Of a stretch of 64,000 bases of DNA, positions 60,001-64,000 are shown in pieces (the stretch's first letter is position 1; each line of letters begins with the position of its first letter). Position numbers: made by a program. The stretch is from an uncultured Planctomycetota bacterium. GTDB lineage: Bacteria; Planctomycetota; Planctomycetia; Pirellulales; Lacipirellulaceae. The stretch is from NCBI GenBank assembly GCA_963719315.1, contig CAVRBU010000004.1, forward strand, positions 288,001 through 352,000, given 5' to 3'.

Positions 60001-63000
60001 AATGCCGAGCGTTAGACTGATCTTCCAGGCGTGATCGGGCATCTTCCAGATCCGCCCCAGGTAGTTGCCCGCCAAGATCGGTAACACGAACAGCGCCAAC
60101 AGCGTCAATAACAAACTCCACGGTCCCCACCCGCTGTTTGCCACGTCCCCCGGCTTGGCTCCAGCGGCTTGAGCCGCTTTGGTGGCGAGCGAGTCCGCCG
60201 TTTTTCCGGCCGGCATCGACGTTCCGCTCTCAGCTTTCTTCTCGTACGTCGTAGCTGCCGAAGCCGGCGTGCTCGTGATGGCGGGAGTGCTCTCGGCTGC
60301 CGGCGCGTTTTCCGCAGCCTTCGCGGGCGCGGCCGGCTGCTCGTCGCTCTTCGTGGCCGGCTTCTCTGCCGACGCATTCGCCGGTGCATCGGCGTGAGTT
60401 TTCTCGGCCGGTTCGGCCGCCGCCGGTTTCTCATCGGCCTTGCCGGCCGTCTTCGTGTCCTGGCCCCAGCCGATTGCCGAGTTCATCAACACAGCCGTTG
60501 CCACGACCGCCGTCCACATCCACCAACGCCCGACCGATTTTGTATCGCAATTTCTCATATTCCACTCATTCCGCCGGTGTAGCCCGCTCGCTCCGCGAGC
60601 GGATTACTGCTCGCAAAGCGGGCAGACTACACTCAAGATTTCTCAATTGTTATGACTTGGTTCCGCCCGCCGCGCCGTCTTCGTCTTCGCCAGTCACTAC
60701 GCGAGCAATGGCCGACATGTTGAGCCGGATTTTTGTTCCCGTCGATTCGTCCACCCGAATCGTGACGCGCTGCGCGTCACGCTGCACGTTGGTGACGACG
60801 CCATAAATGCCGCCAATCGTGACCACGCGCTCGTTTTCTTTCAAACCGCCGATTTTCGCGCGGAGTTCCTGCTCCTTCTTCTTCTGTGGTCGCAGCATGA
60901 TGAAGTAAAACAGAATGCCAGTGATCAAGATCATGATCAGCAGGCGCGGCCCATCGGGCAGACCCTGAGGCGCCTCCGGCGCCGGAGCGGGGTTCGTTCC
61001 GGCAGCGGGCGGCTGCACCGGCGCTTTAGCGGCCGCGGGAGCCGGTGCGGGCGGTTGTGCCGGCGTCTCAGCCGCCGCTTGGGCCAGCAATATGCAGTGG
61101 AGTAAATACGCGATCACTGGGGCAAATATCCGGATGGAAAAAGAGCCTGATTTTGGGCGGCAGAACTGCCCCTTTGGGGCGTCCGCCGAGACGCTGTTTC
61201 GGAGCGGGTCAATCATCATAAGGTCAAGCGCCGCAACGGACAAGGGCGGCTCATCCGGTGCCGCCAAGCAGGCTCCGCGCCTGGACTGAGTTGGTTGAAG
61301 TTACCGGGCGGCACTGGAGGAAAAGACAAGGAGACAAGGAGAGGGGGAGACAAGAAGATTCGGTCGGGTGCCAGTGTCTTCTTGTCTCCTTACTCGCAAG
61401 TCGTAGTCCACCCGCGTCGACGCTCGATGAGGAGCGCTGCATACCGATCCTCGGCGATCGCCTGCCGTGCCTCCGCCATTAGCCTTTGATAATACGTCAG
61501 GTTGTGGATCGAAACCAACATCGGGCCGAGCATTTCGTTCGCCTGGAACAGGTGTCGCAAGTAGCCGCGACTATGCCGGCAAGCAGGGCAGCGGCACGAC
61601 ACATCGAGCGGCTCGCGATCGTGCGCGTGCTGCTGGTTGCGCAACCGAATCGGGCCGGTATCGGTGAACGCCAACGCATTGCGACCATTGCGCGTTGGCA
61701 TCACGCAATCGAATAAATCGATTCCCCGGCCGATCGCCTCCAACAAATCGATCGGCCGGCCGACGCCCATCAGATACCGCGGCCGATCGCGAGGCAGCAG
61801 CGGCGTCGTCACGTCGATCGCGACATACATTTGGGCCGGCGGCTCGCCCACACTCAAGCCGCCGATTGCGTAGCCGGCGAAATCGAGTTCAACCAGCCGC
61901 ACGGCGGACTCGGCCCGCAATTCCGCGTCCAAACCACCTTGCACGATGGCGAACAAAGCCTGGTCGGCCCGCGTGGCGGCCGCCTGGCAACGTTTTGCCC
62001 AACGCAAGCTGCGGCGCATAGCGTCGGCCACCACGTCGCGATCATTGGGGAGCGCCACCACGTGGTCGAACACCATCGCCACGTCGCTGCCAAGCTGTTC
62101 TTGAATTGCCACGGATCGCTCGGGCGTAAGCTCCACCGCCGCGCCGTCGATATGCGAGCGAAAGCGGACTCCACTCTCATCGAACTTCATTCGATCGGCC
62201 AGGCTGAAAACCTGAAACCCGCCGCTATCGGTGAGAATCGGGCCGTCCCACCCCATGAAGTTGTGCAGCCCACCGAGCGCCGCGACAGTTTGCTCACCCG
62301 GCCGCAGCGCGAGGTGATACGTGTTGGCGAGAATCATCTGTGCGCCCGTCTCGCGCAGCCGCCCCGGATCGACGCCTTTTACTGTGCCGAGCGTCCCCAC
62401 CGGCATAAACGCCGGCGTTTCCACATCCCCGTGCGGCGTTCTGAATCGCCCCAACCGTGCGTGCGATTCGGCTTCTTCGTGCAAAACGTCGAAGCCAAAT
62501 GCCGAGGATGTCATTGAATTGCGCCGGCGAGAGCGATTTGGCTCGATTTTCGGCTCTCGACTTTCGACCCTCAGGTCTCGACCCGTTCAATCGCCGCGCA
62601 GCTTCAGTCCCTGAATCGTCAGCTTCTCGCGCACCTCATTCAGACTCGTAACGCCGAAGTTCTTGCACTCCAGCAAATCGTCGCCGGTGCGGCGCAGCAA
62701 TTCGCCGATCGTCGATAGACCGAGCCGCACCATGCACTTGCGGGCCCGCACCGAGAGGTTCAAATCGGCGATCGGTCGATCCAACATGGCCCGCTCGTCG
62801 GCCGAAAGTGTTTCGGGATCGTAGACCGGCTCCTCTTCGCGAATCTGGTCCGCAAACTGCCCCAACTCCAGACCCTTCGATTGCAGCATGTCGCTAATTT
62901 CGACGAGCGATGTCTCGCCGAAGTTCTTGCTCGCCAGCAATTCCTGCTCGCTCGTTCTCGTGAGATCGCCGAGCGTCATGATGCCCATCTTCTGCAGGCA

Positions 63001-64000
63001 ATTGCGGCTGCGGACAGAAAGTTCGAAATCGGTGACCGGAATGCCGAGCACCTGGCTGAGCCGATCCTGGCGGCGCCGAGCGTCTTCGTCGTAGTACATG
63101 TCGCGGGCGGCGTCGGCGTCCTTCAGAAACAGCCGAGCTCGCGGATGGTCCGGAAACACCTCTAATATCCGCCGGTAACACTGACGCGCCTTTTCGTAGT
63201 GCTGCATGTCTTCATACAGCACGCCGAGGTTGAGCAGCGTGCCGAGGTTCGTCGGAAACTGTGTCGCCGCGCGTTCGTACAGGTCGCGGGCATAGCTATC
63301 GTTCCCGTGACGATCGTTTTCGAGCGCCAGGCCAAACAGGGCTCCGGCGTGACTGCCGTCCGCGGCCACGGCCCGCTCGAGTAGTGCGACCGCTTCGGTC
63401 GGATTGCCGCCCAGCGCAGAGACCGTGGCGGCTCGTTGATACAAATACTCCGCTGTCTGTTCGACCGCGCCGGACAATCGATTGAGCGCGTCCATCGAGT
63501 CCTGCGCGCGACCGTTGTACCGCAGCGCTTCGGCCTTCGCGATCGCGACTTGATCGCGCGAGTAACCGGCCTTCTCGGCCGACTCGTAGGCCGTCAGCGC
63601 GTCCGCATATTTGTCGAGCGCCAAATACGATTTGCCCAAGTAGAAATGCGTAAGCGCGCCGCCATCGCTGTGGGACAGCATTTCGATCGCGTCGCTGTAC
63701 CGGCCGAGCAGGTACAGGCACACGCCCAACCGGGCCGACGTTGCCGGACTGCGATTCGGCTGATCTTCCAACTCGCCTGCCGCTTCCCGCAGTTCGCGAT
63801 AGTTCGAATAACTCTTGCCGATCGCGCCAACGATCTGCACGATCTCGTTCGGCCCGAACGCACTCGGCGACAGGACGATTTGCTTTACGACGGATTCGGT
63901 GCCAATCGACATACTTCGACGCTCCTCAAGTCCACGATTCGTTTGCGGTATACGAGAGCCAGCGGTCGGAGTCGAACCGACAACCCCCGCATTACGAATG

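Follow-up and report, generated by a model that had tools for sequence, protein, structure and literature searches.

Near its end, the window, the whole stretch of 64,000 nucleotides analysed here from an uncultured Planctomycetota bacterium of the Lacipirellulaceae, carries a gene for a protein of 441 residues in which a TPR solenoid is followed by a conserved helical connector and by two modules of the RNA polymerase alpha-subunit C-terminal domain (alpha-CTD; RNA_pol_A_CTD in Pfam), here named CTD1 and CTD2 (Table 1). The same tRNA lies upstream of the gene in 64 of 75 close-relative loci, and a sigma-70-like hexamer pair was found upstream of the tRNA (L115 2085..2057; one found vs 0.6 expected). 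The adjacency to tgt, claimed in an earlier note on this DNA, recurs: of the 71 close-relative loci with enough downstream DNA, 55 have tgt as the next gene downstream, on the same strand. The gene neighbourhood is conserved at the order level only; neighbours vary from genus to genus, and among the close-relative loci and 23 class-level loci there is no conserved operon partner pointing to RNA polymerase.

Table 1. Coordinates, in positions of the window, of the TPR/alpha-CTD gene, its parts and its neighbours.
Feature	Position	Strand	Evidence
Whole gene, 441 aa + stop (stop codon 62587-62589)	62587..63912	(-)	ORF list; ATG start; 74-94% identical to full-length orthologues
TPR solenoid, residues 8-256, about 16 helices	63145..63891	(-)	Pfam TPR families; AF2 helices 8-252
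Conserved helical connector, residues 257-291, bridging TPR and CTD1	63040..63144	(-)	AF2 helices 257-272, 276-289
CTD1, residues 292-352, best-conserved part of the protein	62857..63039	(-)	PF03118; E 1.9e-14 to E. coli 1coo_A
Flexible acidic linker CTD1-CTD2, residues 353-378	62779..62856	(-)	Block pLDDT 72-77; block conservation 0.31
CTD2, residues 379-441	62590..62778	(-)	PF03118 best stretch 371-432; E 1.6e-13 to RpoA chain 5tw1_A
tRNA-Thr (anticodon CGT), just upstream, to 64030 beyond the window end	63956..64000	(-)	ARAGORN, L115 1956-2030
tgt (queuine tRNA-ribosyltransferase), 72 nt downstream of the TPR gene	61390..62514	(-)	Pfam TGT 515 bits
yajC, after tgt	60650-61267	(-)	YajC 75.5 bits
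secDF, after yajC	57259-60558	(-)	ORF list

The Pfam scan of the protein matched 16 families; for RNA_pol_A_CTD (PF03118) the score is 139.1 bits with a cut-off of 23.8, and its two matching stretches lie C-terminal to the TPR_2, TPR_1, TPR_16, TPR_14 and TPR_19 matches. A genome-wide PF03118 search gave the same residues and E-values as had been noted earlier, namely module 1 at C4:350881-351063 (residues 284-344, E 1.1e-19) and module 2 at C4:350617-350802 (residues 371-432, E 1.5e-20); the two score 72.8 and 75.5 bits and are above the gathering threshold. In these contig coordinates the window spans C4:288001-352000 and does not begin at 320001; the window positions first given for the gene are correct. 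In the TPR part (PF07719, PF00515, PF13432 and others) the scores are 66.5 bits vs 27 for TPR_2, 62.5 vs 27.8 for TPR_1 and 58.7 vs 32.7 for TPR_16, and Foldseek gives a probability of 1.00 to consensus TPR and OGT TPR structures; the Foldseek search of the PDB returned generic TPR superhelices only (consensus TPR, OGT, SPINDLY and APC subunits), with no functional lead. The AF2 model, with 65 orthologues in the alignment (mean pLDDT 94.3, pTM 0.70), shows helices over residues 8-289 and then two small helical bundles separated by a low-confidence block (pLDDT 72-77), which reproduces the picture of a helical repeat followed by two loosely linked bundles obtained previously. Helices at pLDDT above 90 occupy residues 300-308, 314-318, 322-327 and 333-345 of CTD1 and 388-397, 402-406, 410-414 and 421-433 of CTD2; in the model, the modules are predicted to be small helical bundles with two helix-hairpin-helix (HhH) motifs, like the solved alpha-CTDs.

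Conservation by blocks is poor over residues 1-160 (0.27-0.42) and better over residues 161-260 (0.51-0.62). The connector has a constant length of 34-35 residues in 75 orthologues and a near-invariant motif around M272 ('MYYDE'), with R258, A259, D265, M272 and D275 conserved in at least 90%; the linker between the modules varies from 18 to 42 residues, is rich in E, A, L and P and has a median net charge of -3. The protein as a whole is acidic, with a median net charge of -12 for the TPR part and of only +1 and +2 for the modules.

The genome also has a normal rpoA, as the earlier note had it, whose 330-aa product scores 383.9 bits vs 302 with the NCBIfam rpoA model and 343.4 vs 227.8 with TIGR02027; the ORF list, Pfam and the genome search together support the claimed architecture, a TPR protein with two alpha-CTDs encoded by a separate gene beside full rpoA. 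That the TPR protein is itself a second RpoA, or an annotation artefact, is suggested by names, JGI calling most members so and Prokka having labelled the member of Tuwongella immobilis rpoA_1. However, this reading is extremely improbable and is ruled out by domain content: RNA_pol_L and RNA_pol_A_bac, the N-terminal dimerisation and insert domains (PF01193, PF01000), both present in the true RpoA of T. immobilis and in the RpoA of a genome from another phylum (G317), are absent from the 16 Pfam families matched, the rpoA equivalog models score below cut-off (123 bits vs 227.8 for TIGR02027 and 122.8 vs 302 for NF003513), and a complete rpoA is found in the same genome and in 37/37 sampled genomes. 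All 73 CTD1 domains form a clade of their own apart from the RpoA CTDs (support 0.896, and 89 in an IQ-TREE tree of a 67-domain subsample).

The modules belong to the fold family of the RpoA alpha-CTD (PF03118; 1COO, 1LB2, 3K4G), with E-values to 1coo_A of 1.9e-14 for CTD1 and 2.4e-9 for CTD2, and they keep the equivalents of Arg265, Asn294, Gly296, Ser299 and Glu302; the RpoA CTD hangs on a flexible linker, as CTD2 does in the TPR protein. Unlike RpoA, the TPR protein lacks alpha's core-building N-terminal domain, bears two CTD copies per chain on a TPR solenoid and differs at the 260, 267, 297 and 298 equivalents through lineage- and paralogue-specific changes.

The earlier note was wrong in treating the alpha-CTD as a module met solely in RpoA, where it is tethered: curated models and other architectures carry it as well. 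The NCBIfam models that match the CTDs of the TPR protein are those of the stand-alone PRK07758 (95 positions; NF005841), of BREX PglW (NF033442) and of the beta' subunit PRK14906 (NF011498), which share an alpha-CTD-like module outside RpoA; unlike the TPR protein, none of the three has a TPR solenoid and none is a phylum-wide single-copy gene. The protein falls far below their cut-offs: with PRK14906 it scores 24.5 vs 1437; assignment to the small stand-alone type of about 95 residues was rejected at 39.3 bits vs 115 for a chain of 441 residues, and assignment to PglW at 24.8 bits vs 990, the match covering the alpha-CTD-like stretch only and the kinase domain being absent. A defence role was likewise dropped, its sole lead being a weak PADLOC match to the alpha-CTD-like part of PglW (22.5 bits, no stretch passing alone). 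The alpha-CTD is also found joined to a helicase and nuclease, to a kinase and to sigma-70 region 4, another promoter-DNA module to which tandem alpha-CTDs are joined in rare long relatives; in the genome G317 two modules are on beta' and two on RpoA. At E<=1e-8 there are only four fused forms, proteins exceeding 772 aa; short forms account for 2295 matches, mostly fragments. The 95-aa stand-alone alpha-CTD gene reported at C2:452584-452871 was recovered by the PF03118 genome search; its product groups with RpoA-type CTDs and, with a short stand-alone frame in only 2 of 37 planctomycete genomes, it is not a phylum trait.

The TPR protein, in contrast, occurs across the phylum. One gene with TPR and two CTDs stands beside a normal rpoA in 37/37 planctomycete genomes; in a wider sample all 301 genomes give a match at E<=1e-5 and, leaving this genome aside, 296 of 300 do so at E<=1.3e-40, which upholds the phylum-wide presence first proposed. 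A sample of 150 genomes from one other phylum yielded no member (0/150). The search of 1.84 billion representatives gave again the 410 proteins at E<=1e-30 counted previously, and 121 of the best 150 have 420-480 aa. A record labelled Solirubrobacterales (L041) was rejected as a member outside the phylum: its gene order is TPR gene, tgt, yajC and secDF as in the window, the sole rpoA accompanying it is of another type, with 'NFGKKSI', and the genome looks like a mixed bin. Literature searches did not retrieve a paper on a TPR and two-alpha-CTD family, and PMC12316311 lists only the COGs.

The contact positions were mapped through a gap-free alignment to the E. coli alpha-CTD, in which the CTD1 residue is the E. 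coli residue + 36; CTD1 also aligns without gaps to the solved 1coo_A, 1lb2_B and 3k4g_A. In CTD1 the residues F296, R301, L306, N330, F331, G332, S335, L336 and E338 are invariant in 65-75 orthologues; in CTD2 the invariant residues are R389 and E426. The DNA-contact residues of E. coli, which we take to be R265, N268, N294, G296, K298, S299 and E302, are kept at six of the seven positions in CTD1 and at five in CTD2, where Lys or Arg stands at the 268 equivalent. In particular, the R265 equivalent is invariant in CTD1 (73/73), CTD2 (71/71) and planctomycete RpoA CTDs (21/21), that of E302 in CTD1 (73/73) and CTD2 (71/71), and those of N294, G296 and S299 in CTD1 (73/73 each), with N268 at 68/73. 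The residue matching Lys298 is Thr in both modules, as the earlier note had warned; Thr is also found in 21/21 planctomycete RpoA CTDs and, because the lineage's own RpoA has it too, it is a lineage trait that does not specially tell against the paralogue binding DNA. At the 297 equivalent CTD1 has Glu (67/73) and CTD2 has Gln or Val, so that both lysines of the E. coli 'GKKS' second hairpin are lost; with these changes the surface for DNA has been remodelled, and a different ligand could be what it serves. Arg is gained at the 267 equivalent (CTD1 68/73, CTD2 65/71; absent from RpoA CTDs) and Phe occupies the 260 equivalent in CTD1 (73/73). CTD1 is acidic at the equivalents of D259 (69/73) and E261 (68/73), residues that in E. 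coli face sigma region 4, and variable at those of the E. coli activator-contact patch (287, 317 and 318). With a mean pairwise identity of 0.64 vs 0.55, in samples that differ, CTD1 is at least as constrained as RpoA's own CTD; this conservation is no proof of DNA binding, because many of the conserved module residues are also structural.

Data from other planctomycetes bear on the cellular standing of the protein. The T. immobilis member VTS00398.1 (TPR families and PF03118 twice, 50 kDa, predicted cytoplasmic) has an LFQ of 7.9-8.7e8 in the Tris-soluble fraction, RpoA ranging from 6.3e8 to 1.1e9, NusA from 3.3 to 6.3e8 and beta/beta' from 2.0 to 2.5e9 (PMC8567305, Table S3); it is thus soluble, cytoplasmic and, as far as LFQ values, which are not molar, allow, about as abundant as RpoA. 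Its SDS-fraction/Tris-fraction ratio of about 0.5 is near that of beta and beta', a likeness that over three fractions cannot show co-fractionation (PMC8567305). In Planctopirus limnophila, the TraDIS insertion index of Plim_0602 is 7.4e-4 vs 0.14 for Plim_0599-0601, with a first cut-off of 0.013, and the gene is in the source sheet of Fig. S3, whose genes the text terms essential (PMC10632474). Plim_0602 is the only P. limnophila gene with both TPR and RpoA COG labels and is probably the counterpart, the assignment resting on these labels, on a length that the index puts at about 451 aa and on elimination rather than on sequence; no P. limnophila entry was found among the named matches to the TPR protein, and a Clp-type ATPase neighbour like Plim_0603 occurs in 0 of the 23 class-level loci. 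The screen, which the earlier note had left to be checked, hence scores the probable orthologue as essential, with a polar effect possible because the adjoining Plim_0603 is itself essential. An RNA run contained 4% of the words, with contigs on the conserved part only and at 85-95% likeness, and was discarded as expression evidence in this organism, the contigs coming from relatives and the library possibly containing DNA.

The alpha-CTD is the textbook hub for bacterial activators and UP elements acting on RNA polymerase. It seems quite possible, if short of probable, that the TPR protein acts in trans, lending two DNA contacts of the alpha-CTD type to a component of the transcription machinery bound by its TPR part, as the residue patterns of the modules suggest. 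The single gene per genome beside a normal rpoA, the abundance near that of RpoA, the probable essentiality and the rare long relatives with sigma-70 region 4 also speak for this reading; against it stand the lost hairpin lysines, the acidity of the whole protein and the lack of a conserved operon partner pointing to RNA polymerase. The protein would be a soluble cytoplasmic accessory factor of the transcription or DNA apparatus, abundant and probably essential, both modules of which would present the arginine-centred helix-hairpin-helix surface by which RpoA's tail touches DNA. CTD1 would be fixed at the end of the solenoid by the conserved connector and CTD2 would be mobile on its acidic linker, as RpoA's CTD is on its own; the solenoid would bind a partner protein, for which RNA polymerase or some factor on it is the likeliest candidate, and the complex would gain two extra contacts with upstream or flanking DNA. 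DNA binding, the identity of the partner and an effect on transcription are what we infer, and the terms global transcription factor or RNAP accessory protein, used previously, would be apt only if these hold.

The same surface could serve DNA without RNA polymerase: as an adaptor in DNA architecture or transactions, the protein would bind DNA with little sequence preference through its HhH modules and recruit through its solenoid a repair, recombination, segregation or nucleoid machine. High abundance is typical of nucleoid proteins, alpha-CTD modules are also found on a helicase-nuclease protein, and a sizeable share of the T. immobilis member is in the SDS fraction, where the paper on that organism also places many DNA repair proteins (PMC8567305). 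This explanation is rather unlikely, as the modules resemble the alpha-CTD in particular (E about 1e-14 to RpoA chains) rather than HhH domains in general, CTD1 retains the two acidic positions that in RpoA face sigma, and genes of repair or segregation do not recur as neighbours across the 23 class-level loci.

If the modules do not bind DNA at all, they might act as free alpha-CTDs that capture the ligands of the RpoA CTD (activators, NusA-like factors, sigma region 4), buffering, sequestering or scaffolding them on the TPR platform. The loss of both second-hairpin lysines, the acidic residue at the CTD1 297 equivalent and the acidity of the whole protein would fit such a hub or decoy; the residues conserved in the paralogue alone (Phe, Arg and Glu at the 260, 267 and 297 equivalents) suggest that it has its own surface for a ligand, and an abundance like that of RpoA would suit a competitor. 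Against this, Arg265, known for contacting DNA, has an equivalent that never varies among the 144 paralogue modules, the activator-patch positions vary in CTD1 and a mere decoy would less readily account for essentiality, so that this possibility is considered unlikely.

To our knowledge, transcription in Planctomycetota is almost unstudied. A single-copy gene that places two extra alpha-CTDs on a scaffold for protein binding would be an addition peculiar to this lineage, made either to the core machinery of gene expression or to the organisation of the chromosome; should RNA polymerase turn out to be the partner, the subunit picture accepted for the bacterial enzyme would have to be revised for a whole phylum. 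A stronger form of the proposal, which we regard as improbable, is that the planctomycete holoenzyme carries the TPR protein as an extra, phylum-specific essential subunit, at about one copy per polymerase, providing a third and a fourth alpha-CTD; if true, the reading of upstream promoter DNA and of sigma region 4 would fall to a module that all other studied bacteria carry on RpoA alone. Genetic tools exist for P. limnophila. A likeness in mode is possible with CarD and RbpA, essential RNAP accessory factors of actinobacteria that add a DNA contact: these are abundant and lineage-restricted, with one part directed to polymerase and the other to promoter DNA, but they have no sequence or fold relation to the TPR protein, for which polymerase and DNA binding are only proposed. 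Chlamydial Scc4/CT663 was considered as a TPR-type RNAP binder and dropped, the abstracts not naming it a TPR protein. Finally, within the stronger proposal, the conserved internal M272 might even yield a TPR-less isoform with the two CTDs.

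The 441-aa protein is a bivalent array of RNA polymerase alpha C-terminal domains (alpha-CTDs) on a protein-binding TPR solenoid, in which one module is fixed and the other tethered. Pfam assigns RNA_pol_A_CTD twice, C-terminal to several TPR families (139.1 bits in total against a cut-off of 23.8), and a genome-wide PF03118 search returned both modules, CTD1 and CTD2, in agreement with the figures of the earlier note; the gene's window coordinates in that note were also correct. The window is C4:288001-352000, and an offset of 320001 given for it was wrong. Taken alone, CTD1 matches the E. 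coli RpoA chain 1coo_A without gaps (E 1.9e-14) and CTD2 the RpoA chain 5tw1_A (E 1.6e-13). The AlphaFold2 model, with 65 orthologues drawn phylum-wide as input, has a mean pLDDT of 94.3 and a pTM of 0.70. The median net charge is +1 in CTD1, +2 in CTD2 and +1 in planctomycete RpoA CTDs, with -12 in the TPR region and -3 in the linker.

Features of the TPR + two alpha-CTD gene, its product and related loci
Feature	Location	Strand	Remarks
TPR + two alpha-CTD gene	window 62587-63912	minus	441-aa ORF, ATG start
M272 codon	window 63097-63099		start Met of 170-aa forms
tRNA-Thr(CGT)	window 63956-64000, continuing to 64030 (L115:1956-2030)	minus	upstream of the gene
95-aa stand-alone alpha-CTD	C2:452584-452871 (L004:1438-1725)	minus	PF03118 search of the source genome
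TPR solenoid	residues 8-252		helices, AlphaFold2
Connector	residues 257-272, 276-289		two long helices between TPR solenoid and CTD1, AlphaFold2
CTD1	residues 284-344		PF03118, E 1.1e-19; four-helix bundle after the connector, AlphaFold2
Linker CTD1-CTD2			block pLDDT 72-77, AlphaFold2
CTD2	residues 371-432		PF03118, E 1.5e-20; second bundle, C-terminal to the linker, AlphaFold2

Without the N-terminal domains of an alpha subunit, the protein reaches 123 of the 227.8 bits that the rpoA cut-off requires and was rejected as RpoA; a normal 330-aa rpoA of the same genome is above this cut-off. A census of every PF03118 match found one RpoA and one two-module frame in 37/37 genomes, and a short stand-alone alpha-CTD frame in two of them, the source genome and G176. 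The 95-aa product in the source genome clusters with RpoA-type CTDs and not with CTD1 or CTD2; it is acidic, with a net charge of -6 across the domain, and keeps Arg at the 265 equivalent. Further alpha-CTD-like matches in planctomycete genomes occur within longer frames, three in one of 822 aa (G044:C19:17212-17892) and one in one of 1472 aa (G055:C1:825964-826128).

The gene is kept throughout Planctomycetota, as the earlier note had proposed: among 300 other genomes of at least 90% completeness some match was present in all, and at E<=1.3e-40 in 296, across more than 80 families. Regarding the four exceptions, the gene is broken across contig ends in G195, while the 2.2 Mb genome G047 has a TPR frame followed by one alpha-CTD only (C8:26015-26927), with a TAG between the pieces, either a variant with one CTD or a disrupted gene; no such gene turned up in G105 (310 contigs, RpoA module alone) or in G006 (260 contigs, a single module of RpoA-type grouping at a contig end), which in neither case equals absence. 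A search of 1.84 billion representatives gave 410 proteins at E<=1e-30; among the top 150, 121 have a length of 420-480 aa. In the ESM Atlas, all 10 listed of 30 matches are TPR + PF03118 clusters whose commonest phylum is Planctomycetota. Some families have shorter forms of 288-347 aa without the N-terminal repeats, so that, besides the connector and the two CTDs, the conserved core takes in some three to four TPRs. No full-length match was found in 150 genomes of one other phylum (best 7.1e-18; 0/143 without seven unpublished genomes), a sample centred on a genome reached via a Solirubrobacterales-labelled record. That record (L041/G301) is probably a mixed bin: its contig C12 carries frameshifted pieces in the planctomycete order TPR-2CTD, tgt, yajC, secDF, and the sole rpoA of the genome (L212:181-1161) differs in type, having Lys at the 298 equivalent.

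On the minus strand, tRNA-Thr(CGT) is followed after 43 nt by the gene and, after a further 72 nt, by tgt, yajC and secDF. The sole sigma-70-like hexamer pair is upstream of the tRNA; it matches by consensus alone, one such pair being present where 0.6 would be expected. The gene may be co-transcribed with the tRNA from a tRNA promoter. Within the 400 nt upstream of the gene, the tRNA recurs in 64/75 close-relative and 3/3 order-level loci, and in none of 22 class-level and 47 other phylum loci; tgt directly follows the gene in 55 of 71 close-relative loci. At class level (23 loci) the neighbours vary by genus, including an MqnC-like radical SAM enzyme (6), RsmB with ArgRS (5), a sugar-phosphate isomerase-type TIM barrel (3), SpoIID (2) and tgt (1). 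A conserved operon partner is lacking, so the neighbourhood is uninformative on function.

The relationships of the modules were derived from 167 distinct alpha-CTD domains (73 CTD1, 71 CTD2, 21 planctomycete RpoA CTDs, one stand-alone and one fragment), with UFBoot values from a 67-domain subsample. CTD1 forms a clean clade (FastTree support 0.896; UFBoot 89), and a separate one unites the RpoA CTDs, the stand-alone domain and the G006 fragment (0.833; 82); CTD2 does not come out as one clade in either tree. The Arg265-type surface is kept and CTD1 is under strong purifying constraint: it has the highest conservation within the protein (block identity 0.74-0.79), exceeds CTD2 (0.48) and the RpoA CTDs (0.55) in mean pairwise identity with 0.64, and keeps Asp at the 259 equivalent in 69/73 sequences and Glu at the 261 equivalent in 68/73. 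The Thr at the Lys298 equivalent, from which the earlier note had argued that DNA binding may differ, is a lineage trait shared by the planctomycete RpoA CTDs and no defect of the paralogue.

Residues at equivalents of E. coli RpoA positions (CTD1 residue = E. coli residue + 36)
Equivalent	CTD1	CTD2	Planctomycete RpoA CTD
260	Phe 73/73	Leu	Leu
Arg265	invariant	invariant	invariant
267	Arg 68/73	Arg 65/71	Ser, Ala or Thr
Asn268	Asn 68/73	Lys/Arg 62/71	Asn 20/21
Asn294, Gly296, Ser299	invariant	nearly invariant	largely kept, 299 Ser/Thr
297	Glu 67/73	Gln or Val	Lys 15/21
Lys298	Thr 71/73	Thr 64/71	Thr 21/21
Glu302	invariant	invariant	Glu 19/21

One family member is highly abundant. The Tuwongella immobilis protein VTS00398.1 is described in Table S3 of PMC8567305 under the Prokka name rpoA_1 (50.0 kDa, pI 5.91; Pfam PF13174; PF03118; PF03118; PF07719; PF13432; PF13181) as a predicted cytoplasmic protein without signal peptide, assigned to fraction S1. 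According to the LFQ values reported there, which are not molar amounts, its expression level is like that of polymerase subunits; the three fractions are no proof of its association with the polymerase.

LFQ values in T. immobilis fractions S1 (Tris-soluble) and S3 (SDS-soluble), S2 being Triton X-100-soluble (PMC8567305)
Protein	S1	S3
VTS00398.1	7.9e8, 7.9e8, 8.7e8	4.1-4.2e8
RpoA	6.3e8-1.1e9	4.7e8-1.5e9
Beta	2.0-2.1e9	1.0-1.1e9
Beta'	2.3-2.5e9	1.2-1.3e9
NusA	3.3-6.3e8	2.4-8.6e8

Another member is probably essential. In the Planctopirus limnophila data of PMC10632474, to which the earlier note had pointed as a check, COG0202 is assigned to Plim_0499, named the alpha subunit in the text, and to Plim_0602, also labelled TPR (COG0457), which on copy number is very probably the orthologue, since each of the 37 sampled genomes has exactly one TPR + alpha-CTD gene. 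Its TraDIS insertion index is 7.38e-4 (first cut-off 0.013), equal to one insertion per 1355 bases and hence about 451 aa; that of rpoA is 3.96e-3 and those of the upstream neighbours Plim_0599-0601 are 0.14-0.146. Plim_0602 is included in the Fig. S3 source sheet, which according to the text holds the essential genes; the adjoining Plim_0603 (Clp-type ATPase, index 1.2e-3) is essential as well, so polarity is a caveat.

In the tentatively preferred working, both modules would contact DNA like the tail of RpoA and the TPR would hold either RNA polymerase or a factor bound to it, so that the polymerase would gain alpha-CTD contacts in trans. An adaptor in chromosome or other DNA transactions, unrelated to RNA polymerase, is rather unlikely, and slightly more doubtful is a hub or decoy for proteins docking on alpha-CTDs, a reading favoured by the acidic 297 equivalent and by the fact that neither hairpin lysine is kept. 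A second RpoA is hardly conceivable, being excluded by the domain content.

Contrary to the earlier note, the alpha-CTD is not confined to RpoA: curated NCBIfam models matching these modules describe a small stand-alone protein, PglW and a beta' subunit, and rare long proteins combine it with helicase and nuclease, kinase, or sigma-70 region 4. In G317, a genome of another phylum, RpoA itself (397 aa) has two tandem alpha-CTDs (L213:805-1998, minus strand) and the beta' subunit has two alpha-CTD-like modules at its C-terminus (L214:1792-5163, minus strand). What is new is the TPR + two alpha-CTD architecture, encoded once per genome throughout the phylum by a gene that is abundantly expressed and probably essential; a full-text literature search found no study of the family, and public records label its members by domains only or, wrongly, as alpha subunit.

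Among 120 short relatives listed, about 19 are exactly 170 aa long, their first residue being the near-invariant Met (M272) of the MYYDE/MFYDE motif; they include P0301, P0338, P0341 and P0400, and some are on contigs of 64-963 kb. These forms may be a gene-calling artefact after frameshifts, or hint at an internal start that would give a TPR-less two-CTD product.
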